DNA from: Thermoplasmatota archaeon | GTDB taxonomy: Archaea > Thermoplasmatota > E2 > DHVEG-1 | Length of the DNA stretch: 64,000 nucleotides | Assembly (NCBI GenBank): GCA_030619765.1 | Contig: JAUXAU010000005.1 | Location: 795-64,794 of the forward strand | Direction: 5' to 3' | Part shown: positions 40 to 15,972 of the stretch, in pieces | Position numbering within the stretch: the first letter of the stretch is position 1 | How the letters are laid out: every line of letters begins with the position of its first letter | Position numbers and translations under genes: made by a program | The notes under the pieces: generated by a model | Databases searched by the model: none | Told to the model about the DNA's origin: nothing | The model's input: the letters and a program-made list of their open reading frames with translations, nothing else

Positions 40-993
40 TTGATAAAGATGACTTGCTTAGTTAAAAAAGAAAAACAAGGTATTGATGAAGTCGTTCAAT
101 GTCCTGAATGCGGTAATACACGTTTATCTAGAGACTATAACAGGGGTGAACTTGTCTGCAATGAGTGTGGGCTTGTGATAGATGAAGATTTTATCGATCA
201 TGGGCCTGAATGGCGGGCATTTGACAGTGATCAAAGAGAAAAAAGGGTACGTGTTGGTGCTCCGATGACCCTTACGATTCACGATAAGGGATTAACTACG
301 GATATAGATTGGGCTAACAAAGATTCCTATGGGAAAATGATATCTCCAAGAAATCGTGGGCAATTATATAGACTTCGGAAATGGCAGCGTCGAATACGCA
401 TAGCAAATTCAACGGAGAGAAACCTTGCTCGTGCGCTTTCCTATCTCGATCGGATAGCTTCAAGTATGGGGCTTCCAAGATCAGTCCGTGAAACCGCTGC
501 GATGATTTACCGGAAAGCAGCGTTGAAGAATTTGGTACGTGGTCGAAGTATAGAAGGTGTTGCTGCCGCAGCTTTGTACGCTGCATGCAGACAGTGTCAT
601 GTGCCAAGGACCCTTGATGAGATAAGTAGTGTAGCAGGTATATCAAGAAAGGATATTGGGAGAAACTATCGGTTCGTCACCAAGAAAATCAGATTGAAGC
701 TTCTGCCTACGTCACCTGGGGATTATATTTCACGGTTTTGCAGTGAATTAAAGCTCGGTACCGAGGTTAAAGCAAAAGCTATGGAAATATTGAAATTAGC
801 AACGGAAAAATCCTTGATTAGTGGTAGAAGCCCTGTAGGAAGTACAGCAGCATCTCTCTACATAGCATCTATTCTTTGTGGGGAACGGAGAACACAAAGG
901 GAGATAGCGGATGTAGCAGGCGTCACCGAGGTAACCATTCGAAACAGGTACAAAGAACTGGTAAGGAAACTGGATATAGAGATTGCACTGTAG
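40..993 (+). CDS. tfb: Transcription initiation factor IIB (TFB)
   Basis: N-terminal Zn ribbon CPEC..CNECG, B-reader GPEWRAF, two cyclin repeats (GRSIE, GRSP), C-terminal [13 protein letters not shown]. Confidence 0.98.
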
Positions 994-1003
994 ACCCATC
1001 GTT

Positions 1004-1327
1004 CTATTTGCTTTTCTTCTTAACTAAAAATATTTCAATAGAAGATACGTTAGATGTTCTACCTTCTTCATTGGTGAGATTTTCAGTACTGATTTTTATC
1101 TCTTTTACTTCTGCATCTGTAACAAACCTGTTTCTCACAATTTCTGCAGTATCCACCGCTCTACTTATAGCTCTGCCCCTAGCCTTTATTACAACCTCGT
1201 CTGAACCACCACTGAACTCTGTTATTACTGCAAGCACATAACTCATTGGCGGTTTCTTTCCAACATATACTACGTTTTCATCTGTCCTTTCTTCTGTTGT
1301 TTTTCCTACCATAGATTTTTCCTCCAT
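1004..1327 (-). CDS. albA: Chromatin protein Alba
   Basis: [31 protein letters not shown] and NVSSIEIFL motifs. Confidence 0.97.
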
Positions 1328-1534
1328 TGAACATAGTTGACTACTTCCTGTTGATCTAATATTTCAAATTGCCTCCTATCCTATAAATGCTTCCATTAGA
1401 CCAAACTCTAAGAGTTTTATCCGAATTAGATGAATTTTCATACTCCATCAAAAAATATCTTCGACAACCCCTCCGTGAAATTTTCACCGAATTCCATCAA
1501 TAAAATCTCCATTTCAATCGAGCCTCTTCTCCCA

Positions 1535-1777
1535 TTACAATCCGCTCCTTTTTACCATTTCTCCAAACAACTTCCAACCTCTCATAGTATTCTTACTCAT
1601 ATAGACAAACTTTCCCTTTACCCTATCAAATATAGAGACGATCTCATCATCATCCTCATGTATCGCAACAAGAACCTTGCCGTCGGAATATGCGCCATAT
1701 CGGCCACCGGAAGGAAGTGCATATCCGCCTATCTTCTTCATGTTTTTCCTTACTTCATCCGCGTTCGGTATTTCCAT
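1535..1777 (-). CDS. Hypothetical protein
   Basis: 80-aa ORF co-oriented with the leftward operon. Confidence 0.55.
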   Translation of the reverse strand: MEIPNADEVRKNMKKIGGYALPSGGRYGAYSDGKVLVAIHEDDDEIVSIFDRVKGKFVYMSKNTMRGWKLFGEMVKRSGL

Positions 1778-1856
1778 TTATATCGCCATATCCTATCAAT
1801 GGGAAAAGTTGACTCAACTAATTCGTCAACATGAAGCCCCCCCTACTTTTTTTTAC

Positions 1857-2087
1857 TCAACAAACACAATGGTCGCTTAATTCCATAAACCAAGAACGCC
1901 AGTATGGAGATAAATTGTTGCCTGTTTTTGGATCTGTTCGAGTGTCTGGTTTTTCCTTTTTCGGTGTAATATAAACATCTATACCACCGTGTTTGTTTGT
2001 AATCAGATGAACTTTCATGTTTTTCTTTTTTGCTTCTCTCTCGTATTGTTGAAGAGAGCAATAATTACATTGTGTCAATTCACTCAT
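1857..2087 (-). CDS. Small Cys-rich hypothetical protein
   Basis: CNYC near N-terminus, HCVC at C-terminus; overlaps the stop of the upstream gene. Confidence 0.7.
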   Translation of the reverse strand: MSELTQCNYCSLQQYEREAKKKNMKVHLITNKHGGIDVYITPKKEKPDTRTDPKTGNNLSPYWRSWFMELSDHCVC

Positions 2088-2340
2088 TTTTTAATCCCTC
2101 CATATTATCAACACCACTACTTTTTAATCTCATTAAAAGTTGGAGATAACTCACTGACTTATGAATGGTGTTCAGATCATTGACCTTATTTTTCCAAACA
2201 TTCATAGTCTTGTCATCGAGCGATAAATCCCCAATCAAATCGACTGCTATCATCTTCAAACACTCGACCAGATCATAGTACCCACCGAATCCTTCCTGAG
2301 CTAGAAGATCATCCAGTTTGTTCCAATCTTCACGGTTCAT
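2080..2340 (-). CDS. Hypothetical protein
   Basis: ATGA overlap with the DUF4326 gene; operon packing. Confidence 0.7.
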   Translation of the reverse strand: MNREDWNKLDDLLAQEGFGGYYDLVECLKMIAVDLIGDLSLDDKTMNVWKNKVNDLNTIHKSVSYLQLLMRLKSSGVDNMEGLKNE

Positions 2341-2666
2341 TTTTTATTTACCTCAAAATCCAACTTTTCAACCAATTCAACTAACACATCACCATGGCAC
2401 GCCTCTGGCTTACACCAACAACACAATGTTTTTCCCTCAAGCTCATGGAGACAACCAAGCAGTTTCGGATTATCCTGTAAATATTCTCTGTATAATTCAA
2501 TTGACTTTTGTCTACCATGTTTTTTTACAGAAAATGGATTATGCCATTTCGATTGTTGGAATGGAGTAAAGTAAACAGATCTGCCAATATAAGCATATTT
2601 GTCTGTTTCCTTCAATACTCTATTCCAAAAATCGGTCCCTTTGCCTTTCAAATTAATGACATTCAT
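2337..2666 (-). CDS. DUF4326 domain protein
   Basis: YIGR...SKWHNPF...YREYL...LEGKTLCCWCKPEACHGDVL family signature. Confidence 0.9.
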   Translation of the reverse strand: MNVINLKGKGTDFWNRVLKETDKYAYIGRSVYFTPFQQSKWHNPFSVKKHGRQKSIELYREYLQDNPKLLGCLHELEGKTLCCWCKPEACHGDVLVELVEKLDFEVNKK

Positions 2667-3009
2667 ATGATGGCCTCGCTACCTTTTTAACATCTTCAAC
2701 AGTGTCAAGGAAAATCCTCGTTTGTTCAATTACCCTGTCTCTTTTTGACAGAACTCTGGCACCTCTAAAACGAGGGCTTGGATATTTTTTACACAAGCAA
2801 GAAGGGATATCCAGGTTGCAGTTATCACACCACAAAAAATCTCTGTATTCACTCCAATGAAGCACCGTATCAAATGCTTTGGTACCACATATCGGGCAAG
2901 CATACCCGAGCTCCACAGGAAAGAATAATGACGTTCCAGAGGGTCTTCTACCGAGTAACTCTTCAGCACGTTTGTTTTTACTCTGTTTCTCTTTTGGTGT
3001 CTTATACAT
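2653..3009 (-). CDS. Zn-finger hypothetical protein
   Basis: CPIC...CDNC plus CLC; first ORF downstream of TIGR array 1. Confidence 0.75.
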   Translation of the reverse strand: MYKTPKEKQSKNKRAEELLGRRPSGTSLFFPVELGYACPICGTKAFDTVLHWSEYRDFLWCDNCNLDIPSCLCKKYPSPRFRGARVLSKRDRVIEQTRIFLDTVEDVKKVARPSYECH

Positions 3010-3077
3010 TCAAGGGTCCCTTCTAATATCAGTAATTTGAATAAAAGATGTACGGTTCCTTGCTTCATAATGGTTTG

Positions 3078-3120
3078 TAGCAATAGCTGACTTATTGGTT
3101 CTGGAAGTCAGCCATTGCTA
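3078..3120 (-). terminator. Stem-loop at the 3' end of TIGR array 1 (terminator or processing hairpin)
   Basis: Minus strand TAGCAATGGCTGACTT-11 nt-AAGTCAGCTATTGCTA; 16-bp stem fully paired as RNA on the minus strand (one G.U). Confidence 0.75.
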
Positions 3121-4277
3121 TAGTTCGCAATTATCGAATGGGCTTCATCCATTGCTTGGCTCGCACATTGTTTGTGGGCTTCAACCTTCCATTGGCTCGC
3201 ATTTTCTCCTTGGGCTTCACATTTTATGTGGCTCGCAATTTGTCAGTGGGCTTCACATTTTCACTGGCTCGCATTTTTTTATTGGGCTTCAACATTATAT
3301 TGGCTCGCACGCTTTCTTTGGGCTTCACCTATGTGATGGCTCGCACATCTCAAATGGGTTTCAATTATCAACTGGCTCGCACGTTGTTTATGGGCTTCAA
3401 CCTTCCACTGGCTCGCATTTCCCTATTGGGCTTCAATCATCAAATGGCTCGCATATATTCGATGGGCTTCACATTCCAACTGGCTCGCATATTGGATATG
3501 GTTTTCAAAGTTTTTATGGCTCGCATAAACCCCATGGGCGTCATAAGTTCACTGGCTCGCATCTATGACATGGGCTTCAACGCTTCTATGGCTCGCACGT
3601 TGCAAATGGGCTTCATGTTCTTCATGGCTCGCATCTTTTCCATGGTCTTCAAATCTAGAGTGGCTCGCATATCTCGATTGGGCTTCAACTTTCAACTGGC
3701 TCGCATTTTTCCAATGGGCTTCAACCATCTAATGGCTCGCAGCTTGTCAGTGGGCTTCAATCTTTTCCTGGCTCGCAGTTTTTCAATGGGCTTCAATCTC
3801 TCAGTGGCTCGCATGTCTACCCTGGGCTTCAAACTCCCTATGGCTCGCACTATTACAATGGGCTTCAGTATCCCGATGGCTCGCACTCTCTATATGGGCT
3901 TCGGATGTTACATGGCTCGCATTCACATCATGGGCTTCAGTCCTTTCCTGGCTCGCATATAGTATTTGGGCTTCAATATCCCATTGGCTCGCATTTCTTC
4001 TCTGGGCTTCAATCTTTATATGGCTCGCATATTTCCAATGGGCTTCAAATTGTACATGGCTCGCATTTTCTTCGTGGGCTTCAAATCCAAGATGGCTCGC
4101 ACTTTTGGTTTGGGCTTCAGTTATCAACTGGCTCGCACTATTACGATGGGCTTCAGTATCCCGATGGCTCGCAAATTCCCCCTGGGCTTCATTCTTAGAT
4201 TGGCTCGCATTTATTATCTGGGCTTCAACCCCTTATTGGCTCGCACATTTTATTTGGGTTTCAATCTTTTCTTGGCT
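3121..4277 (-). ncRNA. TIGR array 1 (tandem interspaced guide RNA array), 32 units of 36 nt
   Basis: Strict period TGCGAGCCA-N9-TGAAGCCCA-N9 on the minus strand, 64 variable 9-nt spacers each flanked by CCA and TG (one by CG); begins ~14 nt after the stop of a Nop-domain gene. Confidence 0.93.
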
Positions 4278-4291
4278 ATTTTTAACATCAT

Positions 4292-5176
4292 TTAGAAGTT
4301 GTATTTGCCTTCCCAGTCTACAGCATCTCTCCATGTAGTAACGTCTTTGTGTCCTAATGCCTCTTTCACATAGGGTTCTCTGACATCTAATCCTGCCATT
4401 TCCCTAGCACATCCATAATAATGGGCCAGGAAAAGCTTCCTCGTTACTCTGAGTGCCATGTTATGTGCATGCCCTTTTATGAGTTTGGTATCCTCTTTTT
4501 TGTATGGTTTACCGTATTTGGCTTCTAATTCACCTTCCGGGTATTTTCTGTTCAAATATCTTGTTTTAGCATCGTTGTAACATTTTCTATAGATTCCCTT
4601 GTTTTGTTTCATCAGATTATCACTGATTTTCCATGTAAAGGTCAGCAGACGCGGGTTGAACTTCTGATCCTTGTGTCGTTTAGGTGCTTTTCCATCTCCT
4701 GTTACATCATTGCCTGTATGGCACCATAAACTGGAAGTTGTATGGTATTGTGAACAATCGCCAAATTCTTTTAACAAATTTGCACTGATAACAGGGCCGA
4801 TGCCTCTGATTTTTTCCAGAAACTCGGTGTAGACTTTCTCTTGTAACACATACTCGAGCATCCTATTTTTATATTTGTCTTCGATGTTCTCCGATTCATC
4901 TGCCAGATCCCAGCACATTTGTACATATCTATGTTCATGTTCGGTGATTTCTTTCTTTTCAAGTAAATCATTCCACAGATTGAAAAGTTGCTTGTCTGTA
5001 TATTTCTTTTTGAAGTCTCTGTCTTCCTTTTTTTCTTCTACAGCGTCAAAATCTATTCCTTCTACTTTTTTTCTTATGATGTCTCTTATTCGATTTTTGG
5101 TGCTTATTCTTACTTCTTGCATATCATAGTAGGCACCTGCTACTATCCTGCCTAACATTTTTGTTATATCTGACAT
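4292..5176 (-). CDS. tasA: TIGR-associated Nop-domain protein without nuclease domain (TasA-like)
   Basis: Coiled coil YYDMQEVRI..KNR, IS110/Nop-like IRGIGPVISANLL..GD...SSLWCHTG, YRKCY..AK, KGHAHNMALR..RKLFLAH, PY...LGH. No RuvC/DEDD or HNH motifs. Flanked by TIGR arrays. Confidence 0.88.
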   Translation of the reverse strand: MSDITKMLGRIVAGAYYDMQEVRISTKNRIRDIIRKKVEGIDFDAVEEKKEDRDFKKKYTDKQLFNLWNDLLEKKEITEHEHRYVQMCWDLADESENIEDKYKNRMLEYVLQEKVYTEFLEKIRGIGPVISANLLKEFGDCSQYHTTSSLWCHTGNDVTGDGKAPKRHKDQKFNPRLLTFTWKISDNLMKQNKGIYRKCYNDAKTRYLNRKYPEGELEAKYGKPYKKEDTKLIKGHAHNMALRVTRKLFLAHYYGCAREMAGLDVREPYVKEALGHKDVTTWRDAVDWEGKYNF

Positions 5177-5193
5177 ATCATATCACTCCCTTT

Positions 5194-5239
5194 TGGTTTT
5201 CAATCTTGCATTAACTCCCAGGTGTCTCTCTGGTTTTTA
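5194..5239 (-). repeat. Degenerate TIGR repeat remnant just upstream of tasA
   Basis: Minus strand TAAAAACCA-N10-TGGGAGTTA-N9-TGAAAACCA resembles loop/edge/loop repeats. Confidence 0.5.
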
Positions 5240-5346
5240 CGTTACGAATGACTATCATTCTAGGCCAACAACCATACAATCGGAGATGGGATTACACCCC
5301 TGAATCATACCGCTGCCAGATGCCCATGCCTTATTTAACAAGAGAA

Positions 5347-5508
5347 TCATTTTTTACCCTCTTCATCTAACTTATCAAGGCCGATATTTAAGATAATTCT
5401 CAACAACTCTGAATTATGTTTATACCTTCCAGAATTCATATAGGCCATAAATCGTTTGTATTGACTTTTTGTCGGTCTGACTATTAAACAATGATCGCTT
5501 TCTTCCAT
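5347..5508 (-). CDS. Ribbon-helix-helix (CopG-like) protein, 53 aa; not in the supplied ORF track
   Basis: Hand translation MEESDHCLIVRPTKSQYKRFMAYMNSGRYKHNSELLRIILNIGLDKLDEEGKK fits the strand-helix-GRY.x.SELLR-helix RHH pattern. Confidence 0.7.
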   Translation of the reverse strand: MEESDHCLIVRPTKSQYKRFMAYMNSGRYKHNSELLRIILNIGLDKLDEEGKK

Positions 5509-5537
5509 TTTTCAGTTCTCCTTATTTTTTTATCGTT

Positions 5538-5565
5538 AAACCACCGGATTTTACCCCGGTGGCTT
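5538..5565 (-). terminator. Stem-loop at the 3' end of TIGR array 2
   Basis: Minus strand AAGCCACCGG-GGTAAAAT-CCGGTGGTTT, 10-bp stem with one G.U. Confidence 0.6.
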
Positions 5566-5962
5566 CGCATACCTTTTTTGGACTTCACAATATCAATGGC
5601 TCGCACATTTCCCATGGGCGTCAATACCCTACTGGCTCGCATATGTCAAGTGGGGTTCAAATCTGAAATGGCTCGCATATTGGGCATGGGCTTCAAATCT
5701 AAATTGGCTCGCACTATCACAATGGGCTTCAGTATCCCGATGGCTTGCATCTTTTTATTGGCCTTCAACATTTCATTGGCTCGCACTCTCTATATGGGCT
5801 TCAGATGTTACATGGCTCGCAGATTTTCAATGGGCTTCACTCTTCTATTGGCTCACACATCTCAGATGGACTTCATACACCAATTGGTTCCGCAAGATTT
5901 ATATGGATTTTACATATGCCGTGGCTTGCAGAAGATATATGCATTTTATACCCATTCTGGCG
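5560..5962 (-). ncRNA. TIGR array 2, ~10-11 units with degenerate ends
   Basis: Same edge and loop repeats and 9-nt spacers as array 1; shares spacer pairs with array 1. Confidence 0.9.
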
Positions 5963-6033
5963 GTATGCCCCTTCTTGGCGTTCTTCGTTCCCAAGAACCA
6001 TTCGGGAATACACGATAGCAATATTATAAACTG

Positions 6034-6098
6034 TACAAATGATTAATAAAGGTAACTGTATTATTCATAAAATACATATGGTCATACAATAACAATAG
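6034..6098 (-). promoter_or_regulatory. Left copy of a 65-bp inverted repeat; putative promoter/operator facing TIGR array 2
   Basis: Reverse complement of 7193-7257 with 2 mismatches (53-bp perfect core); contains TTTATTAA on the minus strand and a TGTATT-N8-AATACA palindrome. Confidence 0.75.
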
Positions 6099-6102
6099 GT
6101 AG

Positions 6103-7110
6103 ATGATAAAAATGGCTAACAAAAAAAATAGAACAAGGGTTGGTGTATTGGGTGATGATTTAGATAAGAGAGAGACTACAAAAAAGATTAATTTTATATT
6201 AGAAGGACCTAAAGAAACATGGTATACTATACAAGAAATAGTGGATCTTGGACAGGATAAATACGGATTAAACTTTCCTACAAAAGAGACGATATCTCGA
6301 TATCTAAACTCTATGATGGACGATAAAAAAGTAGAAGTAAAAAAACCAGAGAAAAAAGGGTTAGCATATAAGTGGAGATTGAAAAAACATTTGTATGTGT
6401 ATGAAGATCTGGTATTCGATTACGATCTCAATGTATTAAACGAATTAAAAGACTATATCACACCTCTCCAAAGAGATATGCATAATATTTTAGTATTTGG
6501 TCCAGTAACCATCTGCAACTTCCCTTTGTATGATTTTAAAGAATGTAGAGAAGAAATTAAAGAAGCAGTGGTTATATTGAAAGATGCTACAGATAAATTA
6601 GATGAATTATACATAGGACGGATATTGCATCTTGTTACCAATTATATTGATACACTAAACGAAATGAAGGCTCCTCTCTTGGATAAGCAGTTGATTTCTA
6701 TTTTTACTTCTGGGTTAGAAAATAAAGTACCCTTAGACCATAGATTGTGTAAGTGGGATAAACAGATTAATGAATGGATTAGAGAAACTATACCTGCAGA
6801 TAACGAGGAGGAAAAGAGACTTGTTGTTAGCAAGGATCTCTCATTAGCTAAACTTCTGAAGAGTGAATATTACCCGTCCAAGGGGGATGATGAGGTTTTG
6901 GAACTGATAGCCGATTACCATATTGGAAAAAATATCGGTGATTGTTTCCTTCACTTGTATCTTATGTTATCAGATGTCGTAATGATGCCACATCCCATCG
7001 TTATCGTTCGTAGCAATGTGACAGATCGGAAGGATTTAGCAAATTCTTATTCCAAGAGACGTATATTAGCACGAAAAGGTTTGTTAATTGATAAAAAGAT
7101 TGTGAAATGA
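6103..7110 (+). CDS. Putative transcriptional regulator with N-terminal winged HTH
   Basis: YTIQEIV...PTKETISRYLNSMMDDKKVEV..YKWRL wHTH pattern; enclosed by the inverted repeats. Confidence 0.65.
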   Translation: MIKMANKKNRTRVGVLGDDLDKRETTKKINFILEGPKETWYTIQEIVDLGQDKYGLNFPTKETISRYLNSMMDDKKVEVKKPEKKGLAYKWRLKKHLYVYEDLVFDYDLNVLNELKDYITPLQRDMHNILVFGPVTICNFPLYDFKECREEIKEAVVILKDATDKLDELYIGRILHLVTNYIDTLNEMKAPLLDKQLISIFTSGLENKVPLDHRLCKWDKQINEWIRETIPADNEEEKRLVVSKDLSLAKLLKSEYYPSKGDDEVLELIADYHIGKNIGDCFLHLYLMLSDVVMMPHPIVIVRSNVTDRKDLANSYSKRRILARKGLLIDKKIVK

Positions 7111-7192
7111 GATTATAGCTAATCAGCGGGTTTTTAACCTTGGGTGTATCGGTTTATTAATATCGATAAAATAGAATTGAAATAATTTTTAT

Positions 7193-7257
7193 CTATCGTT
7201 ATTGTATGACCATATGTATTTTATGAATAATACAGTTACCTTTATTAATCCTTTGTA
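7193..7257 (+). promoter_or_regulatory. Right copy of the 65-bp inverted repeat; putative promoter of the rightward operon
   Basis: TTTATTAA at 7241-7248, about 22 nt before the ATG at 7270, which fits leaderless archaeal promoter spacing. Confidence 0.75.
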
Positions 7258-7269
7258 TGATTTTTAAGC

Positions 7270-7455
7270 ATGGTGAAAAGAATCCGGAAAAAAATCATAA
7301 AAATGGGGAAATCCAGGGGTATTACCATTCCCTATACGTACTTCGACCAGTGGCTAATGCAAGATAAGGAAATTACGGGATTTATGGTTGATCTTGGAAA
7401 AAACATCCTGTTACGACCCATCTTTAGCAGGAAGAAAAAAGACTTGGAGGACTAA
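7270..7455 (+). CDS. AbrB/SpoVT-like DNA-binding protein
   Basis: KIIKMGKSRGITIP...ILLRP swapped-hairpin motif. Confidence 0.8.
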   Translation: MVKRIRKKIIKMGKSRGITIPYTYFDQWLMQDKEITGFMVDLGKNILLRPIFSRKKKDLED

Positions 7456-7458
7456 AAA

Positions 7459-8211
7459 ATGCACGAAGAGTTATTCACAATTGCCCAACATTATGGGGAT
7501 AATTGCAGCAATTGTAAAGAAATTTGCTGTGCCAATATGATACTGGATATAGATAGAGAGAACATTAAAGCCATGTCCAAGTACTTGAGAATGCAACCAG
7601 TAGAATTCAGGCGAAAATACACAAAATTATATAATAACCTCTTCAAGGAAGGGGAAATTAAATCCCTCAGTGCAATGGGGAAAAAACAAGCAAAACGAAA
7701 CTCAAGGGTTTTAGTGTTCAACACACATCCTCTTGACTCCGTTGAACTATCAAATGACCAGAGGACTCGGCTTATCGATACTATTGAGGAAATGTCCGGT
7801 GAAAAAGTAGGTAATGCTACTGAGGAAGTGGGTTTTTCTCTTTGTCCTTTTTATGATGAGAAAACCCATATGTGTACAGTACATTCTGTTCGCCCCACTG
7901 CTTGTCAACAGTATCCCTTCAACATTGTCGACAAGGAAACCATCGACATTCGAAAGGTTAACATCTGTGTCATTTCCACAAACTTTCTTCGAAGGTTTCA
8001 AAAGTTTGTGGAAAAAGCAGATACTCCAAATGCACAGAAATATGCTCAACAGGTCAAGGATGACATCCACAATGGTGGATATTCCAACCATTATCATCTA
8101 CCGTTACCTATTGTCCTCTTTTACATTGATTACGAATGCAAAAAACTGGGGATACGTACAAGTCCTAAATTTGAAAGAATTTCAGAGATAGCATTAGAGA
8201 AATGGATATAG
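7459..8211 (+). CDS. YkgJ-family (CxxCxxCC) cysteine-cluster protein
   Basis: CSNCKEICC...CPFY...CTVHSVRPTACQQYPF. Confidence 0.88.
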   Translation: MHEELFTIAQHYGDNCSNCKEICCANMILDIDRENIKAMSKYLRMQPVEFRRKYTKLYNNLFKEGEIKSLSAMGKKQAKRNSRVLVFNTHPLDSVELSNDQRTRLIDTIEEMSGEKVGNATEEVGFSLCPFYDEKTHMCTVHSVRPTACQQYPFNIVDKETIDIRKVNICVISTNFLRRFQKFVEKADTPNAQKYAQQVKDDIHNGGYSNHYHLPLPIVLFYIDYECKKLGIRTSPKFERISEIALEKWI

Positions 8212-8217
8212 ACAGGA

Positions 8218-9771
8218 GTGTGCAACATGAGTGACGTTATCCTAGCTGAGAAACCCATCGCTGCCAAAAAGATGACAGACGTCCTTAACGTAAAAACCGT
8301 GCCAGCAGAAGGTCATCTATTGGAGCTGAAAGCAAAGGAACAAAAATGGATTCCCCCATACTTTGATTTGAAATGGGCTATACGGAAGAAGACCATTGAC
8401 AAATTCAATAGAGTGATTAAACACTTAAAGAACGCCGATAAAATTTACATTGGGACAGATTACGATAATGAAGGGCAATTAATTTCGTATAACCTTTTAA
8501 AAGAAGCCGGAATTGATCCACATTCTGTACATCGAATGAAATTCAGCAGTTTGGAATCAGAGGCATTACAAACTGCTTTTGAGAATACAATCCCTTTTGA
8601 CATGAATATGGCTCTCTGTGCAGAAGTAAGACATCGTCTTGATTGGTATTTTGGGATGAACATCAGCAAGGCTCTCACTGAACTTCTAAAAAAGAAGGAA
8701 ATGGTTCGTAGGTACTATCTGACGCCAGTTGGTAGGGTTCAGACTCCTGTATTGCACATCCTCGTGGCCAAGGAAAAGGAGATCGGTAGATTCGTAGCAA
8801 AAGATGAGTGGGTAATATCGCTGAATGGAGTCTATAATAGTAACAAAATTTTTTCAATAATAAGTTATAAAGCTGATACTGAAGACGATGCGAATAAGTT
8901 TACGGATAGACTGGGTTCTGGTCTTATCGATCGTATTACTACTAGTACCCATGAGATTAAGATTTTCCCTCCGAGTAAGGATTATGTTGTAAAGGAGTGC
9001 TTGAATCAGGGTATTTCTGCACACGTCATCGATTTTATACTGCAGGATTTGTATCAAGATGGATACATCAGCTATCCTCGTACCACATCTGAACAGTACA
9101 AAGTTCACGGAGTTGATACGCAGAAGTACCTTAAACGACTGATTACTGTAATCCCACTGGCAGAGAAGGCTATCGGGAAGGAAGCAAGGGAAGGTAAGGA
9201 AGTTGGTGTGCATCCGGCTATCTATCCGATTGAGGCATATTTTGAGAAGGACCTAAAAGGGGTTGTTTGGAACATTATCGCTGATGCATTTGTAAAATCA
9301 CATCTCCCACCAGAGGAATACACGGTCATAAAAACTTATGTTAATATCAATGGAGAGATTGAACTTGCCTATGACAATCCAGATCTAAACGAGGGAGATG
9401 AATTTGATTTTGTCTACAGCATATCCAAGGGGAAATCATCCCCACCAAGGCGACTAGATCCCCAAAAAGTCTATGAGTGGATGGTCAAAACTGATCTCGG
9501 AACTGTCGATACGAGGACACAGACTCTCACTAAGCTTACAAGGACATATATATTCGAAACCAAGGATGGCATCTACACTTCTTCAAAAGGGATACAGATC
9601 TGTGACATACTTGCAAAACTTTATCCGGATATTATCAACATAGATCTCACAAGAAAGTTTGAGGAAATGATTGAAACGGTAAAGAATGGAGCAAAAGTAG
9701 AGCCGGTTCTTTCTCAAGGAAGAGAGACCGTAAGTGGTATAGTTAAAAAGATAAGAGAAGGTACTGAATAA
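8218..9771 (+). CDS. Type IA DNA topoisomerase (compact, element-encoded)
   Basis: TOPRIM AEKP and DYDNEG, GRVQTP, catalytic ISYPRT, HPAIYP, LGTVDTR; no C-terminal Zn ribbons. Confidence 0.92.
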   Translation: MCNMSDVILAEKPIAAKKMTDVLNVKTVPAEGHLLELKAKEQKWIPPYFDLKWAIRKKTIDKFNRVIKHLKNADKIYIGTDYDNEGQLISYNLLKEAGIDPHSVHRMKFSSLESEALQTAFENTIPFDMNMALCAEVRHRLDWYFGMNISKALTELLKKKEMVRRYYLTPVGRVQTPVLHILVAKEKEIGRFVAKDEWVISLNGVYNSNKIFSIISYKADTEDDANKFTDRLGSGLIDRITTSTHEIKIFPPSKDYVVKECLNQGISAHVIDFILQDLYQDGYISYPRTTSEQYKVHGVDTQKYLKRLITVIPLAEKAIGKEAREGKEVGVHPAIYPIEAYFEKDLKGVVWNIIADAFVKSHLPPEEYTVIKTYVNINGEIELAYDNPDLNEGDEFDFVYSISKGKSSPPRRLDPQKVYEWMVKTDLGTVDTRTQTLTKLTRTYIFETKDGIYTSSKGIQICDILAKLYPDIINIDLTRKFEEMIETVKNGAKVEPVLSQGRETVSGIVKKIREGTE

Positions 9772-9813
9772 TGACAGGAGTAATTCGTCAAAGGAAATAG
9801 AAAAGGTGAAACA

Positions 9814-10164
9814 ATGAATAACGTAAAAGAAAAAACAAGAGATATGGAAGAATTAACCAAGGAATTTTTGAAAAATCCAGAAGCAACCATAAAAAAATGG
9901 AAAGTTGCTGTTCATAAACCACAATGGGACATATGGTTCGTACCATATACTGAATCAGAGACAGGGATTTTTGGGTTTATGCCCTTCAATCCAGGTCCAA
10001 AAATGCTGAATAAAAGTATTGAATTTTTTAGAGATCAATATCAAGCCATCAGCCAACGTTATAACATTACATTTCCTGATGATATTCCACCGCCTGTTGA
10101 GAAAGATATTCAACTAAAACGTATGAGAACAGTGATGAATCATATGAGGAAAACCATGAGGTAG
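9814..10164 (+). CDS. Hypothetical protein
   Basis: AGGTGA ribosome-binding site before ATG; within operon. Confidence 0.7.
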   Translation: MNNVKEKTRDMEELTKEFLKNPEATIKKWKVAVHKPQWDIWFVPYTESETGIFGFMPFNPGPKMLNKSIEFFRDQYQAISQRYNITFPDDIPPPVEKDIQLKRMRTVMNHMRKTMR

Positions 10165-10179
10165 AAGAGATAAATAAAA

Positions 10180-10935
10180 ATGACAACAGTAAATAAATCT
10201 GATAATCAGCAAATCTCATGGGAAGACAAATTGCTATTGTACGATAAACTGAATAAACTGGGAGATAGGCTAGGTGGCGACTGTTTTACTTGCAATTACA
10301 ATTGCTGTACAAACATGATGATAAGGTTAAATAGGAATGAAATAAGCAGCGTAAGTAATTACTTAAAAATATCAAAATCAGAATTCAGGAAAAAATATAC
10401 TCACCTATGTCAAGAAGGTGAATATGCCGTGACCTTCAATGGAAAAAAAAATATAGAAAAACTTACTACTACAAATGAGCAACAAGAGCAAATGATCAAA
10501 GAATGGGCAAACCGGCGGGTTCTGCTATTTGAGATAATTGATCAAGAACATCCATGGCATAAGGGAGGGACGTCAATTTGTCCATTTCTAGAGGAAAATA
10601 AAAGATGCAAGATTCACTCTGTCCGGTTTGGGGATTGTCGCTATTACCCATTTGAAATGGTATTTATGGAGAATGCTCCTTTTCTTCAATTGAGAGACGT
10701 AAACCGATGCCTAAAGACTACAGCAATACTTATCGCTATCAGAATTTTTTTTGATTATTATATGCCCGATGAGGATTTGATTGTCGATCTTAAATCAGTA
10801 ATTGACGTTATGTGGGGTAAAGAGATAGTTCAAGGATTTCCTATTCCTCTGCCAATTATGATGGACTTTGTAGACATGTGCAGTTCATATAATATGAAAG
10901 ATGTAGTTTTAGGAAATAAAGGAGGTGAAAAATAA
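10180..10935 (+). CDS. YkgJ-family (CxxCxxCC) cysteine-cluster protein, paralog 2
   Basis: CFTCNYNCC...CPFL...CKIHSVRFGDCRYYPF. Confidence 0.87.
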   Translation: MTTVNKSDNQQISWEDKLLLYDKLNKLGDRLGGDCFTCNYNCCTNMMIRLNRNEISSVSNYLKISKSEFRKKYTHLCQEGEYAVTFNGKKNIEKLTTTNEQQEQMIKEWANRRVLLFEIIDQEHPWHKGGTSICPFLEENKRCKIHSVRFGDCRYYPFEMVFMENAPFLQLRDVNRCLKTTAILIAIRIFFDYYMPDEDLIVDLKSVIDVMWGKEIVQGFPIPLPIMMDFVDMCSSYNMKDVVLGNKGGEK

Positions 10936-11338
10936 AATGAACAACGTTGGGGAAAAATTAGATAATTCTCTCAAATTGTTAATAAGAGAAGACATAGACC
11001 TCGCTAGAACGAGGGTAGATTCGGATGGTGATCAGTGTTTTTATTTATCTGAAAAAGCGTACAATTTGAAAACAGAGGTTTGCCGAAATGAAGACATCCT
11101 GCGTTTTTCTCAATATTTCTTCGAACAGGAAGGCGTTTCACCAACAAGAGAGAACTTAATTATAGTCTATATTGATTTTGTTGTAATGTGTATTATGGAA
11201 CAAACAAATATTAAAGGCTATCTGAGGAAATACAACATTAAAAACGTTGACGAGGAGGATATTTTTCGGACTTTAGTTTCCTTTTTTTTACTTGATGCAA
11301 GCAAAGAAGGGGTTATTGATTTTAGAAAGATAAAGTGA
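10925..11338 (+). CDS. Hypothetical protein
   Basis: GGAGGTG RBS (true start may be ~10937); within operon. Confidence 0.65.
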   Translation: MKNKMNNVGEKLDNSLKLLIREDIDLARTRVDSDGDQCFYLSEKAYNLKTEVCRNEDILRFSQYFFEQEGVSPTRENLIIVYIDFVVMCIMEQTNIKGYLRKYNIKNVDEEDIFRTLVSFFLLDASKEGVIDFRKIK

Positions 11339-11374
11339 GTGAAAAACATGTTAGAATTGACAGAGGAATGAAAA

Positions 11375-11734
11375 ATGCTAGAGGACAATACCATTCTTAG
11401 GGAAGGGGTGCTCGTATGTCAGGACCCAGTGGGCGATATTATTATTTCGTCAAGGGATCTATGTCAAATGAGTAGAAAAATATATGAGGCAATCTTAACA
11501 CTCCCAAAAGAAAAATTACATGAGATAGATTTGTGTATAATAGATTGGCTCAAAGTTGAATTGCCGAGGGCAGAACAACAATTAAAATTAACAGAGGGGT
11601 TGACTTTCAAAACCATGAAAGATCTTATTCTTACTATAAAATGCGTACTTGCTTTGCTGATGGAAAACAAGTGTATTGAAGTAGTGAACGAATTTGGGAA
11701 ATATATTATCTTTAACGAGAGAGAAAATGGATAA
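11375..11734 (+). CDS. Hypothetical protein
   Basis: Co-oriented ORF within operon. Confidence 0.6.
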   Translation: MLEDNTILREGVLVCQDPVGDIIISSRDLCQMSRKIYEAILTLPKEKLHEIDLCIIDWLKVELPRAEQQLKLTEGLTFKTMKDLILTIKCVLALLMENKCIEVVNEFGKYIIFNERENG

Positions 11735-12122
11735 AAAATCTCAAGAATCTATTAAGGAATCAATACGAATATTACGTATTGGTGGAATAATAGGTATGAA
11801 GGGACTTGGATATTTTTGTAAGACAGGTAGAAAAGAACTTACAAAAATTACTACAGCAGAAGCAGTTATTCAAGATCCTAGGATACCAAAACAGGTTTTT
11901 GTTATTGATCCATTGCCAACACAGTTTCTTCAAGACAGATATGATCTGATTGTAAAACTGGCAAGAGAATTAGGAATAAACGTTATCGATAGATCATTTT
12001 TGGAATCAAAGCCTTTCTGCCACATCTGCAAACGGCATTATGATGAATACGACTGTGTCACAGGATTTCGAGATGGTAGTGCAATATTTACTTGTGAAAG
12101 CTGTTTAAGAGGTGGCAGGTAA
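11727..12122 (+). CDS. Hypothetical protein with C-terminal Zn finger
   Basis: CHIC...CESC; likely start MDKK overlapping the upstream stop. Confidence 0.7.
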   Translation: MDKKSQESIKESIRILRIGGIIGMKGLGYFCKTGRKELTKITTAEAVIQDPRIPKQVFVIDPLPTQFLQDRYDLIVKLARELGINVIDRSFLESKPFCHICKRHYDEYDCVTGFRDGSAIFTCESCLRGGR

Positions 12123-12133
12123 ATGGAGGGGAA

Positions 12134-12352
12134 ATGAAAGCGAAGTGTCCGTATTGCCAAACACCTGTCAACATACGATCAGTGTATAATTTGTGCCGAA
12201 GGCATGGTGATGCCGATGGTATTACAGCAGCAACGGGTTATCATCGATGCCCTGGGTGTAACAAGGTGTTTGAATATTCAACTAGTGAAGTAAAAAGCTG
12301 GGAACAGGTTACTGAAACAACGATGTTGCCGGAGAAAGATAAGGTGAAATAA
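12134..12352 (+). CDS. Small Zn-ribbon protein
   Basis: CPYC...CPGC; GGAGG RBS. Confidence 0.75.
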   Translation: MKAKCPYCQTPVNIRSVYNLCRRHGDADGITAATGYHRCPGCNKVFEYSTSEVKSWEQVTETTMLPEKDKVK

Positions 12353-12844
12353 ATGGAAAAAGATGATATAATAAAACAACAAGAAGAACATGACAAGAGA
12401 AAAAAAATCATTCAAAAGCAGAAGTTGATAAATGACTATGGGCTTAAGATATTTGAAACAACAGCTGAAATGGAGTATAAAGTAAAGTTGGATGATGATG
12501 GGCATATCTTAAATCCATTAACAGATGAGAAGATAGATGAGATCTGCAACATTTTAGGAATCGATGATTTGAAAATGAATGAATGTACACTTGCAATCAC
12601 TGATGCTGATGACATCCAAAAGGCTGCTAAGACAAAAACCAATAGATTTCTTGCCCATTTTGTGAAAGCGAAAGGCAAAGAAGTCATGTTGCTGTCCTGG
12701 GTTGCAGAATATAATACTCCTGATAAGCATATTTTAGAGTTTACAGATAATAGTGTAAAAGGCTGTGAAAAAATAAATGAGTTATTAGTGAAGCATTTAG
12801 GAGATCTAGCTGGTTTTACTGAATTTGTTGAAAAACAAAGGTGA
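12353..12844 (+). CDS. Hypothetical protein
   Basis: AGGTGA RBS; abuts the upstream stop. Confidence 0.75.
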   Translation: MEKDDIIKQQEEHDKRKKIIQKQKLINDYGLKIFETTAEMEYKVKLDDDGHILNPLTDEKIDEICNILGIDDLKMNECTLAITDADDIQKAAKTKTNRFLAHFVKAKGKEVMLLSWVAEYNTPDKHILEFTDNSVKGCEKINELLVKHLGDLAGFTEFVEKQR

Positions 12845-12850
12845 AATAAA

Positions 12851-13816
12851 ATGGATGAAGAGTTGAAACGATTAGAGCAATTCGGGTTACTGAAGATTAG
12901 TAAAATAAACTCGACTGGCGTAAAGTGTCGATTATCTAGTAATTGTATAGAGGGAATACTTAACTCCGTCCAAGGAGTATACACAGGGCATCAATCCTTG
13001 GGTGAAGAACTAAAAAAGATAGCATTAGATAGCATAAAAAATATGATACAGCAAATTAATTTTTGTACTGGAGATTGTTCTAGCTGCAATTTTTTTGCAT
13101 GCAAAATTATTTTCGAGATATGGGAACAAATGGAGAAAGCTGGTGAGGTTAAGCTAAAGACTGGTATGGTTGTTAGGCATCATACCTTGTTAACTTTATC
13201 TGTTGTGGAAGAAAAGGTAAAAGAAGTATTCAAAAGGGATGGGTTTGTTACATCTGCGCTTTTTACTCCTGATAGAATATATTATATGCCACCTTTTGAA
13301 AATGCTACGGAAAAAGAAGACGCATATAAATCCTTGCGTAAAATTATTCAGGATGTAAACCCAGAGAAATACTGGTTTGTGTCTGAAGCATGGCTTGGAT
13401 ATAATATATTTACAGCTCCTTCTGAGGATGAGAATAGAGAAAAAAAAGTAATAATTATAGAATATGGTCGTAGTGATCCAACGGAAGAAAAAACAGTTTT
13501 ATATGATTTGGATTTTGATAATCGTACTTTGGTTAATCGTGAAGAGCATACAGGAAATGAATATGATGATCGTATGAATTTTTATTTGGAAGATGTAGTA
13601 GAGGAAAGAGGACAGCAATTTGTCAAAGAAAAGTTAACCGAGTGGATACATGAACATGAAAAATCAGTTATCGAAGATGCGAAAGAATTCCTTGGTTCAA
13701 ACGATACAGAGTATGTTATCAAAAATATGGTAGAAGCAGCTTTGAATGATGGTATTTTTCCTCCCGGTTTTATTGATAAATATAAGGGAAAACAGGAGAA
13801 AGATAAGACTAATTGA
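12851..13816 (+). CDS. Hypothetical protein
   Basis: 321 aa, AGGTGA RBS; CTGDCSSC and FVSEAW motifs. Confidence 0.75.
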   Translation: MDEELKRLEQFGLLKISKINSTGVKCRLSSNCIEGILNSVQGVYTGHQSLGEELKKIALDSIKNMIQQINFCTGDCSSCNFFACKIIFEIWEQMEKAGEVKLKTGMVVRHHTLLTLSVVEEKVKEVFKRDGFVTSALFTPDRIYYMPPFENATEKEDAYKSLRKIIQDVNPEKYWFVSEAWLGYNIFTAPSEDENREKKVIIIEYGRSDPTEEKTVLYDLDFDNRTLVNREEHTGNEYDDRMNFYLEDVVEERGQQFVKEKLTEWIHEHEKSVIEDAKEFLGSNDTEYVIKNMVEAALNDGIFPPGFIDKYKGKQEKDKTN

Positions 13817-13843
13817 AAAGAGAAAAAAGATAAATGTGAGATA

Positions 13844-14062
13844 ATGAACTGCCCTAACTGTGGATATAAATTCGATGGTCATATGTGTATTGCCGATGAA
13901 AAAGCTGAATTTAGAGATGGTGATATCTCCATTTGTTTAAACTGTGGAGAGGTTCATCAATATAAAAATGGAGTTTTAGAGTTAATTGATATACGGGATC
14001 TCCCAAAAGAAATACAAGAAGAGATATTGAAAATAAATGCGGTTAGACAACTGATGAAATAA
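13844..14062 (+). CDS. Small Zn-finger protein
   Basis: CPNCG...CLNCG. Confidence 0.78.
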   Translation: MNCPNCGYKFDGHMCIADEKAEFRDGDISICLNCGEVHQYKNGVLELIDIRDLPKEIQEEILKINAVRQLMK

Positions 14063-15480: not shown

Positions 15481-15482
15481 AA

Positions 15483-15776: not shown

Positions 15777-15972
15777 GTATATTATGACGTAATTATATGT
15801 CCGAAACAGCTGATGATTTAGAAAAGCAATTAGCAGCATTAAAAAACAACGTGAGAGGCTTGAAGAGGGAACAAAACAGGAAACAGCTACGGAACGTGCC
15901 CGTCGGATTGCAGATTTTTATGGGATAGACATTAAAGGGTGGAAATTAAAGGAGCCATGTGGTAGCCCGTAT

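Follow-up and report, generated by a model that had tools for sequence, protein, structure and literature searches.

Three guide arrays around a solo tas gene

The window analysed here, a stretch of 64,000 nt of DNA from an uncultured Thermoplasmatota archaeon (host assembly completeness 88.8%), contains a tasA gene with an array of short alternating repeats on either side of it, and a third array farther along on the opposite strand. The features of the locus are as follows.

3078–3120, minus strand: terminal hairpin of array A1, immediately following the 3'-truncated edge repeat and with a stem of 16 bp (MFE -22.7 kcal/mol, z -5.56; 0 of 200 shuffles as good)
3125–4281, minus strand: TIGR array A1, 32 units of 36 nt, from pattern matches and a TRF period of 36
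4292–5176, minus strand: tasA, encoding a solo Nop-domain Tas protein of 294 aa, coiled-coil in its N-terminal half and RNA-binding in its C-terminal half
5347–5508, minus strand: small open reading frame of 53 aa between A2 and tasA, of doubtful membership in the system
5538–5565, minus strand: hairpin at the end of array A2; it overlaps the 3'-truncated edge TGCGA (MFE -18.5 kcal/mol, z -4.29; 1 of 200 shuffles as good)
5565–5930, minus strand: TIGR array A2, upstream of tasA, about 10 units (8 canonical and 2 degenerate 5' units)
17724–17941, plus strand: TIGR array A3, 3 canonical and then 3 degenerate units
17942–17983, plus strand: terminal hairpin of array A3 (MFE -18.3 kcal/mol, z -7.41; 0 of 200 shuffles as good)

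The 36-nt unit consists, in strict register, of the edge repeat TGCGAGCCA, spacer A (9 nt), the loop repeat TGAAGCCCA and spacer B (9 nt), and both repeats open with UG (box D) and close with CCA (box C). We searched the window for the 27-nt composite TGCGAGCCA-N9-TGAAGCCCA (edge 9-mer, N9, loop 9-mer), allowing up to two mismatches, and obtained 42 matches, compared with a mean of 0.00 and a maximum of 0 in 100 dinucleotide-preserving shuffles. The matches are divided among A1 (31; 3139–4245, minus), A2 (8; 5579–5857, minus) and A3 (3; 17724–17822, plus), and TRF reported a period of 36 at all three arrays. An initial annotation of this DNA had described a 36-nt period made of two constant and two variable 9-mers, with spacers framed CCA-N9-TG, and both descriptions hold. 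Elsewhere, too, tas homologues are found next to arrays of this architecture, with other repeat sequences, and in each of the 16 related loci checked the best lag beside the homologue was 36.

A1 contains 32 units, exactly the number first read downstream of tasA. [quoted passage not shown] Upstream of tasA, where 10 to 11 units had been estimated, the lower figure stands for A2 if its two degenerate units are counted; one of these has the loop TAAAATCCA and the other a 10-nt edge, TGCGGAACCA. A2 ends in a truncated edge repeat, TGCGA, at 5569–5565. The initial annotation had also counted a third array, which lies outside the positions given there (3078–6098), 12.5 kb from tasA and inverted relative to it. 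Its degenerate units measure 39, 37 and ~38 nt and have edge repeats with 1–3 extra bases, and a truncated edge repeat is not clear at its end. Together the three arrays hold ~48 units, close to the ~49 guides of the initial count. A tblastn search of the fetched loci with the 53-aa reading frame found nothing at E < 0.1, and none of the Pfam families scored above the cut-off.

This organisation can be set beside that of dual-repeat TIGR arrays, which Faure et al. describe as having two distinct alternating short repeats (8–12 nt), 9-nt spacers and a 36-nt unit (PMC12045711); the published rule is that both TIGR repeats have a UG start (box D) and a CCA end (box C).

The TasA protein

The 294-aa reading frame, which the initial annotation had assigned to the TIGR-Tas family and proposed for HMM search and structure prediction, is real, and a curated HMM, PDB sequences and the predicted fold agree on the assignment. 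Its product scored 138 bits against the NCBIfam model NF052498 TIGR_Tas_endo (curated cut-off 100; E 4.3e-40), and phmmer against the PDB returned TaTasR (9mty_A; E 1.2e-23) and TasH (E 2e-18). The AlphaFold model (pLDDT 88.8, pTM 0.81) contains helices only, with zero strands. In a Foldseek search of the PDB the best 10 matches, with E from 1e-9 to 1e-7, were without exception chains of TasH or TasR; IS621 and ISCro4 came next (E ~3e-3), and Nop5 and Prp31 were weaker (Nop5 E 0.3 or worse). Identity in the structural alignments to TaTasR and SpTasH was 18–25%.

No Pfam nuclease family was found in TasA, the sole Pfam match being a sub-threshold one to Transposase_20 (E 0.0013), and the phmmer alignment with TasR begins at TasR residue 121, behind the RuvC domain. 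As judged from Pfam, the model and the TasR alignment, TasA has neither a RuvC nor an HNH nuclease domain and is of the TasA subtype, in keeping with what had been read from the sequence at first. The curated NCBIfam model labels such proteins "RNA-guided endonuclease", and the protein encoded here is without a nuclease domain.

Y269 and H276, two residues on a C-terminal loop in the Nop domain, correspond in the alignment to Y289 and H296 of SpTasH, which are described as the pair that cuts pre-tigRNA. All 20 close homologues compared have the histidine of position 276, whereas position 269 is Y or F; because Tyr269 is replaced by Phe in some of these proteins, self-processing may not be universal in the clade. 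A predicted TasA homodimer scored 0.56, compared with 0.00 for the best of 3 controls, a score that may reflect the predictor's acquaintance with the solved TasR and TasH dimers. Among proteins of solved structure, that mark was attained by 20 of the 30 that pair two copies of one chain and by 1 of the 23 that are single chains. At least 98% of contacts recurred between runs, partner pLDDT was at least 80, and the predicted interface spans residues 2–43 and 77–108.

All sequence-testable defining features of a dual-repeat TIGR-TasA system are present, and this identity is supported. The locus is a genuine member of the TIGR-Tas family, for which more than 20,000 loci have been reported; it is another example of a known system and represents no new kind.

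The mobile element and the search for guide targets

The locus lies in an element of at least 26 kb that carries an integrase gene, a primase-MCM (PriCT/MCM) gene and 17-nt direct repeats, and that is divided between two contigs in the assembly. The integrase and PriCT/MCM genes are at its left end, and it also encodes a topoisomerase IA-like protein. The two copies of the direct repeat are:

18259–18275, plus strand: right-hand direct repeat GAAAAAACCAAAAGAAA, a single copy of which occurs in the closed same-genus genome G002, where both flanks adjoin
contig C110, ~73070–73090: left copy of the direct repeat, adjoining the integrase gene

The element is absent from the closed genomes of the same genus that were compared, including G002. 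None of 29 island proteins was found beside tas in relatives; one of the 29, a DUF4326 protein, has a match in one related locus (L056), distant from the tas gene there. Together with the lag of 36 beside tas in the related loci, this supports a self-contained module. The same host genome contains a second, different TIGR-TasA system in another element, on contig C16, where a 216-aa gene directly upstream of tasA2 gives a faint hint of ParB (E 0.055, far below cut-off).

Spacers A and B share a position-specific rule: positions 4–7 are nearly all purines and U is almost excluded at position 5, and C makes up 7.7% of spacer bases overall. A composition bias of this strength is not predicted by simple random capture from foreign DNA. 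In a set of 338 guides taken from 44 related loci the rule can be made out only faintly, and none of the parsed guides is common to those loci and this one. It is possible, if improbable, that the guides are something other than a random sample of invader DNA and that the purine rule is selected, in which case the 18-bp sites read by TasA would be of a limited kind, a purine-rich half followed by a pyrimidine-rich half. One reading would be that purine-rich RNA and pyrimidine-rich DNA form stable 9-bp hybrids, opening AT-rich DNA without ATP; another would be that new guides are made or filtered within the array by some process, instead of being captured. Either, if true, bears on the origin and the targets of TIGR spacers.

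We scanned the host assembly, with the arrays masked, for sites matching 44 guides, and found 0 matches at 0–1 mismatch, 38 at 2 mismatches and 494 at 3, compared with 1.8, 35.4 and 468, respectively, per 44 re-paired control guides. Because the matches to the host equal those of the re-paired controls, neither self-regulation nor a particular target is supported. Three scans of viral contigs for the 18-mers, a search that the initial annotation had suggested, gave 0 and 2 matches for the true guides and 1 for the control geometry, which is chance level, and no viral contig was matched by a second guide. A search of related elements for targets found none.

We consider it likely that this dual-repeat TIGR-TasA system, carried as cargo by the integrated mobile element, 26 kb or more in length, acts by RNA-guided DNA binding or repression against other mobile elements. 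The initial reading of TasA as a binder or repressor has a precedent, because a 2026 preprint presents nuclease-free TasA orthologues as RNA-guided repressors. The same activity could instead make the TasA-tigRNAs a bank of repressors of the element's own promoters or those of the host, with a few mismatches tolerated, a proposal we hold to be unlikely. TasA orthologues repress transcription in that preprint, including that of a native chromosomal gene once retargeted. TasR accepts mismatches at spacer edges and gaps of 1–2 bp between half-sites, so that imperfect sites could count. Three guides occur more than once when all arrays are taken together, and could be retained for function. However, the host scan, which took in the element itself, gave control-level matches at each degree of mismatch and none at 0–1, and the absence of any guide in common with the 44 related loci speaks against conserved regulatory targets.

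Faure et al. raise bending or tethering of DNA as a role for TasA, citing a 180-degree bend and ParB-linked tasA operons (PMC12045711). TasA could accordingly be an RNA-guided DNA-bending or tethering factor that aids an integrase, a replication initiator or a partition protein, and no stand-alone blocker. The element does encode an integrase, the primase-MCM protein and the topoisomerase IA-like protein, and the gene upstream of tasA2 on C16 has its hint of ParB. We nevertheless find this distinctly unlikely: in related loci tas has no conserved neighbour, a ParB-like gene is absent beside the tasA of this locus, and neither the att repeats nor other sites in the element were matched by a guide in the host assembly scan.

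It is very unlikely that the arrays encode box C/D-like guides for 2'-O-methylation, with TasA as a Nop5 paralogue, and we rejected a box C/D sRNP. It is true that the host is archaeal and that both the Nop fold and the box C/D analogy are real; but the complementarity of the spacers to rRNA does not exceed that expected. Against host 16S and 23S rRNA, the 76 distinct spacers had 0 perfect complementary sites, compared with 0.63 ± 0.87 for shuffled spacers, and 22 sites with at most one mismatch, compared with 24.1 ± 4.6. The repeats have UG and CCA motifs and not long K-turn boxes, the model of TasA starts with a coiled coil and lacks a fibrillarin-recruiting N-terminal domain, Nop5 chains are far weaker fold matches than Tas chains, and TasR has no action on RNA substrates.

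Scarcely credible is the idea that tasA is a decayed IS110-family transposase among unrelated satellite DNA or repeat-protein code: despite the weak Transposase_20 match, the name "transposase" given to homologues in the sources and the open frames that cross the arrays on both strands, the IS110 model NF033542 with a cut-off of 140, gave 25.9 bits, unlike the Tas model, which passes, Pfam DEDD_Tnp_IS110 was not seen and neither a DEDD/RuvC-like domain nor a beta strand appears in the model, the array frames are broken (the longest, 274 aa, covers part of A1 only) and would be shifted by the 1–3 nt insertions in A2 and A3 units, and the 36-nt architecture recurs beside tas homologues with other repeat sequences. 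CRISPR-Cas was also rejected: two alternating 9-nt repeats with 9-nt spacers are found here, not a single repeat of ~25–36 nt with spacers of comparable length, and Cas families are absent among the island proteins scanned.

Proposed mechanism and relation to known systems

For the likely role in RNA-guided blocking of other elements, we infer the following steps by homology with characterised TasR, TasH and TasA proteins. The arrays would be transcribed as precursors, A1 probably together with tasA, because it begins 10 nt after the stop codon, and A2 and A3 presumably from promoters of their own; a search for RNA runs containing this stretch turned up none. A TasA dimer, joined via its N-terminal coiled coil, would bind the UG and CCA motifs, and Tyr269/His276 would cleave the edge repeats, with UGCG(A) on one side of the cut and (A)GCCA on the other, yielding 36-nt tigRNAs. 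Each RNP would then open an 18-bp DNA site composed of spacer A and the reverse complement of spacer B, pairing 9 nt with each DNA strand and requiring no PAM; this geometry, given in the initial annotation, agrees with a derivation from published cut sites. Having no nuclease, the RNP would remain bound and so block transcription or replication; for the dual-repeat TasA of this locus, such binding and repression is an extrapolation from distant orthologues. In the least certain step, the guides would most likely be directed at other mobile elements or viruses of the host lineage, in a competition between elements, because matches in the host assembly do not exceed chance.

TIGR-Tas was described in 2025, and the Discussion sections of published work treat its natural roles, its targets and the mode of spacer gain as open, one reason stated being that most TIGR loci lie on short metagenomic contigs. 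The present locus leaves the picture of what TIGR-Tas is unchanged. Its natural setting is, however, unusually complete: a defined element bearing att repeats as well as integrase and replication genes, in a largely complete host assembly, together with closed same-genus genomes that lack the element, a repertoire of ~48 guides and a second TIGR-TasA system. It is well suited to the question of whether archaeal mobile elements use nuclease-free TasA in conflict with one another.

By published description, not by protein alignment, there is a close likeness to dual-repeat TIGR-TasA systems such as FpTIGR of Flavonifractor plautii, whose FpTasA binds 36-nt RNAs (Faure et al., Science 2025, PMC12045711). 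Features in common are a Nop-domain Tas protein that stands alone, units of 36 nt (edge, 9-nt A, loop and 9-nt B), UG...CCA repeats, arrays on both sides of tas, truncated edge repeats, a terminal hairpin and a location in a mobile element. Compared with those systems, the repertoire here is larger, with 32 units in one array (the commonest size given by Faure et al., PMC12045711, is 5 to 15 units) and ~48 in total, the third array is 12.5 kb off on the opposite strand, the host is a member of the Thermoplasmatota and the spacers are strongly purine-biased.

TaTasR (Thermoproteota archaeon; PDB 9mty) and SpTasH (Salicola phage CGphi29; PDB 9w03, 9w04 and others) have homologous coiled-coil and Nop domains and share the UG/CCA repeat logic, and the Tyr/His pair of TasH aligns here; unlike them, TasA has neither RuvC nor HNH, and cleavage is not expected. 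MbTasA and PlTasA, compared by description only, are the functional precedent as nuclease-free RNA-guided DNA binders (bioRxiv 2026.09.09.750476 / 2026.08.11.744272): MbTasA is reported to bind target DNA and reversibly repress a reporter, and appears in the stem-loop section of its preprint, and PlTasA is reported to bind DNA and to use stem-loop guides. By contrast, the locus described here has dual-repeat arrays, and its TasA keeps the Y/H pair. IS621, ISCro4 and the archaeal Nop5 of box C/D sRNPs have the Nop-type RNA-binding fold in common with TasA, and their guides, too, are in two parts bordered by box C/D-like motifs. Unlike the IS110 recombinases and Nop5, TasA has neither a DEDD catalytic nor a fibrillarin-binding domain, and its guides are laid out in arrays, whereas those of IS110 elements come as a single bridge RNA and those of Nop5 from dispersed sRNA genes.

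Repeat architecture and the Tas protein

The three arrays A1, A2 and A3 are built on a 36-nt unit in which the edge repeat TGCGAGCCA is followed by 9 variable nt (spacer A), the loop repeat TGAAGCCCA and a further 9 variable nt (spacer B).

TIGR arrays and tas gene in the window
3125-4281, minus strand: A1, 32 units, edge repeat of the first unit 5'-truncated; ends in TGCGA
4292-5176, minus strand: tasA open reading frame, 294 aa
5565-5930, minus strand: A2, 8 canonical and 2 degenerate units; ends in TGCGA
17724-17941, plus strand: A3, 3 canonical and 3 degenerate units, with 1-3 extra bases in the edge repeats of the degenerate units

The initial annotation had described a 36-nt period with two alternating constant 9-mers, with 32 units downstream and roughly 10-11 units upstream of tasA and approximately 49 guides overall, and this description holds up well. 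In particular, a 27-nt composite pattern (up to 2 mismatches) matched 42 times (31 in A1, 8 in A2 and 3 in A3) but not once in any of 100 dinucleotide-preserving shuffles, and TRF reported period 36 at all three arrays; reading the arrays in register gives approximately 48 guides over A1, A2 and A3, close to the total first proposed. The TGCGA that closes A1 and A2 is a 3'-truncated edge repeat, A1 starts 10 nt after the tasA stop codon, and a strong hairpin follows each array (z -5.56 for A1, -4.29 for A2 and -7.41 for A3). Dual-repeat TIGR arrays are described as having two alternating repeats of 8-12 nt, 9-nt spacers, a truncated edge repeat at either end of the array and a terminator (Faure et al., Science 2025, PMC12045711), and the structures in that paper give a UG start and a CCA end for both repeats; A1-A3 agree with this description in repeat plan, 9-nt spacers, terminal hairpin and the UG/CCA rule, and A1 and A2 also in truncated edges. 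The edge repeats of the three distal A3 units (17832-17941) are interrupted by extra bases at, or close to, the point where processing is presumed to occur (TGCG-TAT-AGCCA, TGCG-T-AGCCA and TGCG-TA-AACCA), and these units look like decaying, or uncuttable, ones.

Rfam had no match in the TIGR locus, neither at its gathering threshold nor with the E limit relaxed to 1, and the 176-nt stretch between a 53-aa open reading frame (5347..5508) and tasA has no notable structure (z -1.17). TATA-like boxes are visible by eye upstream of A2; our scan for sigma-70 promoters and terminators used bacterial models, which are uninformative for an archaeal host. The impression that the 53-aa frame encodes a ribbon-helix-helix protein found support from no family, and tblastn of this frame against the fetched loci gave no match at E below 0.1. 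Two metatranscriptome runs yielded no contigs for this stretch, which is uninformative on expression. One DNA run (share 0.13) contains short contigs whose likeness to tasA and the arrays is 85-99%; several have unit-skipping joints whose sides, at less than about 33 letters, are too short for a conclusion on array variation. In the same run, the summed contig depth reaches 81 and 52 in the two bins that span 5889-6102, against at most 10 elsewhere; the piece of approximately 40 nt concerned (about 5970-6012) is bounded by loose ends on both sides and is not repeated in its own genome or in the fetched loci.

A comparison of 4292-5176 with profile HMMs and known structures had been suggested as a check, and both place the product with the Tas proteins. 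TasA passes the curated NCBIfam model NF052498 (138 bits, cut-off 100, E 4.3e-40), whereas it scores 25.9 bits against an IS110 model with a cut-off of 140, and its sole Pfam match, to Transposase_20, is sub-threshold (19.5 bits, cut-off 21.3). The best matches among PDB sequences are 9mty_A (E 1.2e-23), from an entry titled as a TIGR-TasR complex, and TasH (E 2e-18). An AlphaFold model made with 46 homologues (pLDDT 88.8, pTM 0.81) consists of helices only. When the PDB is searched with it by Foldseek, TasH and TasR chains fill the first 10 places (E 1e-9 to 1e-7, TM 0.50-0.69), with weaker matches to the IS621 and ISCro4 recombinases (E about 3e-3) and to Nop5 and Prp31 (E 0.3 or worse). The alignment with TasR starts at TasR residue 121, and the RuvC domain has no counterpart in the 294-aa protein; because the alignment begins behind that domain, we assign the protein to TasA, the type lacking RuvC and HNH that had originally been proposed. 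The model name of NF052498 reads 'TIGR-Tas system RNA-guided endonuclease', and several sources call homologues 'transposase'; since TasA lacks the catalytic domain of a nuclease as well as that of a transposase, such automatic names will mislead.

SpTasH cuts pre-tigRNA with Y289 and H296, and these residues align with Y269 and H276 of TasA. H276 does not vary among close homologues (20 of 20), and position 269 is either Tyr or Phe. A preprint describes the Y/H pair as a typical feature of dual-repeat systems that stem-loop ones lack. TasA is also predicted to form a homodimer (0.56, versus 0.00 for the best of 3 controls) through an interface of helices 2-43 and 77-108; the mark for a homodimer was reached by 20 of 30 proteins solved as one-chain pairs and by 1 of 23 solved as single chains, and the runs agreed in at least 98% of contacts, with a partner pLDDT of at least 80. 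Because dimers of TasR and TasH have already been solved, we take this prediction as a likeness rather than as independent proof.

Relatives of the module and the integrated element

At E up to 1e-3, TasA has 117 homologues, most of them 290-320 aa long and from metagenomes; the closest non-self match is 83% identical, and the few names given by the sources read 'transposase' (Cloacimonadota, Odinarchaeota). The loci that we fetched comprise 58 from viral contigs, 3 from MAGs labelled bacterial (Cloacimonadota, Anaerolineales and Saccharibacteria) and 64 from metagenomes. Lag 36 gave the highest self-similarity among lags 30-45 in all 16 loci examined (peak 0.44-0.75), in most cases directly beside the tas homologue, and the repeats vary by locus on a constant plan (AGCGAGTCA/AGAAAACCA, CGCGAGCCA/CGAAAACCA, TGTGAACCA/TGAAA.CCA and others). 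With a crude detector, 46 of the 64 metagenome loci showed one or more stretches of 36-nt periodicity, although some of these are low-complexity false positives and many of the contigs are shorter than 3 kb. Of 29 proteins encoded by the surrounding element, none recurs beside tas elsewhere, the single match being a DUF4326 protein in one fetched locus (L056) that lies far from its tas gene, and the module therefore consists of tasA plus its arrays. Among 400 other genomes sampled from the phylum, 7 had a match to the Tas profile at E up to 1e-5, and only one of these (G244) also has 36/39-nt periodicity beside the match, the other matches resembling longer IS110-type frames or lying on very short contigs; such systems are thus rarely found in the genomes searched. 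Our literature search, catalogues apart (table S1 of Faure et al. and TIGRSafari), found no report of TIGR-Tas in the Thermoplasmatota lineage.

The assembly (3.17 Mb in 134 contigs, 35.7% G+C, 88.8% completeness, 3.4% contamination) encodes an RpoB that is 87-95% identical to proteins whose source is labelled Thermoplasmatota or Thermoplasmata archaeon. Positions 1330-18258 of the window have no match in 30 relatives. In the closed genome G002, of the same genus, the homologue of C110:...73092 directly joins the homologue of window 18259-18433, which is followed by tRNA-Pro (window 36825), and a 17-nt direct repeat, GAAAAAACCAAAAGAAA, that occurs at about 73070-73090 of contig C110 and at window 18259-18275 is present in a single copy in G002. 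The empty site and the direct repeat together place the TIGR locus within an insertion of at least 26 kb, made up of a 7.2-kb tail of C110, a contig gap and C96:1-19052.

Genes at the left end of the element
C110: tyrosine integrase, 404 aa
C110: PriCT/MCM protein, more than 997 aa

Within the window the element carries, in order, TFB and Alba; DUF4326; A1, tasA and A2; a 335-aa open reading frame; two CxxCxxCC genes and a topoisomerase IA-like gene; a Peptidase_M78-like gene; and A3. A PHROGs scan of 10 element proteins detected no virion or packaging gene, and the element may be either a provirus or an integrated plasmid.

The TFB-Alba pair (window 40-1327), inside the element, has DNA copies 71-85% identical on at least seven other contigs of the genome (C19, C90, C67, C24, C30, C76 and C38), and further copies at several places in relatives; element-borne cassettes of a transcription factor and a chromatin protein may be common in the genus. 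No family of Pfam, PHROGs or NCBIfam matches the 335-aa frame (6103-7110). Contig C86 carries a DNA copy of it that is 79% identical, and 78-nt inverted repeats (6024-6101 and 7190-7267, 91% complementary) flank it; frame and repeats may be an unrecognized insertion element just upstream of A2. A second integrated element adjoins the first. There, an integrase frame (23686-24591) has at its start 46 nt (23693-23738) identical to the 3' portion of tRNA-Pro, and we take the frame to be a split integrase gene of the SSV type; the intact tRNA-Pro lies at 36825-36897, a 12-nt remnant of its sequence at 18422-18433, and in G002 and G003 the flank 18259-18433 directly abuts tRNA-Pro.

The same genome has a second, different TIGR-TasA system on contig C16 (C16:24731-26959, fetched as L142:7232-9460). 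Its tasA2 encodes 239 aa, 26% identical to TasA, passes NF052498 with 158 bits and is followed by a 22-unit array with edge repeat AGCGAGYCA and loop repeat AGAAAACCA. A 216-aa gene, with no more than a faint ParB signal (E 0.055, far below the cut-off), ends 2 nt before tasA2. Because genes for a DnaB-type helicase and a DnaG-type primase follow, we place this system on another mobile element. Its 21 usable guides had no host match above the control level in the whole assembly.

Spacer bias and searches for targets

Spacers of 44 guides are markedly rich in purines and poor in C: they contain 40.7% A, 7.7% C, 24.5% G and 27.1% T, compared with 32.3% A, 17.8% C, 17.7% G and 32.2% T in the same-strand sequence of the window. 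Spacers A and B share a bias that depends on position: 95% of bases are purines at position 5 in spacer A, as are 90% at position 7 in spacer B, and T makes up 3% at position 5 in either spacer. A set of 338 unique guides, taken from those 44 of the 125 fetched loci with four or more strict units, shows the bias only faintly (at positions 4-7 purines are 59-64%, and T is 41% at position 1), and their spacers otherwise follow local composition. The bias is not residual identity from recent duplication: neighboring units, with 11.1 differences in 18 positions, are about as dissimilar as distant ones (11.4), which speaks against duplication followed by divergence, and only 3 unit pairs lie within 5 differences, with 1.0 expected. 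One idea, based on nucleic-acid thermodynamics, is that the bias may stem from a preference for hybrids of purine-rich RNA on pyrimidine-rich DNA. The main texts of the two TIGR papers make no mention of spacer composition.

TasR cuts 5' of the nucleotide paired to spacer base five and leaves 8-nt 3' overhangs (Faure et al., PMC12045711). From these published cut sites we infer that a target reads, on one strand, spacer A and then the reverse complement of spacer B, because the opposite order would give 5' overhangs; the initial annotation had the same geometry. The resulting 18-mers of 44 guides, searched against the whole assembly with the arrays masked, gave 0 matches at 0-1 mismatch, 38 at 2 and 494 at 3. 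For comparison, 440 re-paired controls, scaled to 44, gave 0.1, 1.7, 35.4 and 468.3 at 0, 1, 2 and 3 mismatches, and a reversed-geometry control gave 1 at 1, 36 at 2 and 465 at 3. The guides are no different from either control, with no sign in the assembly of self-targeting above chance. Complementarity to host 16S and 23S rRNA showed no enrichment (0 perfect sites, 0.63 expected).

Searches beyond the genome had a similar outcome. Matches of the window's guides in 962 kb of fetched related and viral loci stayed at the control level, as did matches of the 338 guides of relatives in the window's own genome; the only exact matches in this cross-target search were to two loci fetched by the scan itself, and no guide recurs in any related locus. 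The proposal that searches with such 18-mers might point to targets met with no success in a viral collection: three exact-pattern scans returned 0, 2 and 1 matches, the last in the control geometry, and the matched contigs (L131 and L132) had no second guide. In a collection of this size, some exact 18-mer matches would arise by chance. A 2026 preprint states the same problem with natural targets for the TIGR-Tas family as a whole (bioRxiv 2026.09.09.750476).

Putative role and comparison with known systems

In orthologous systems, the 36-nt RNAs that Tas proteins bind are cut inside the edge repeat, and each of their two spacers pairs with a different DNA strand of an 18-bp site, with no PAM (Faure et al., PMC12045711). 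TasH cuts its own precursor with the Y/H pair. Nuclease-free TasA is a tight binder of its target and a reversible repressor of transcription (bioRxiv 2026.09.09.750476). By homology, TasA of the window would most likely do likewise with its approximately 48 guides, and a mechanism as binder or repressor is likely. The most plausible class of target, as a reasoned guess, is other elements or viruses, with which the system would compete, because it resides on an integrated self-replicating element and its guides have no host matches.

The identity of the locus as TIGR-TasA is near certain: all defining features of dual-repeat TIGR-TasA that sequence can test are found in it, whereas it lacks a defining feature of each of the IS110, box C/D and CRISPR systems. 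The locus is a further example of the already known TIGR-Tas systems, set apart by its large repertoire, by an inverted array (A3) at a distance, by its place on an archaeal integrated element with defined borders, by the bias of its spacers and by the presence of another TIGR-TasA system in the genome.
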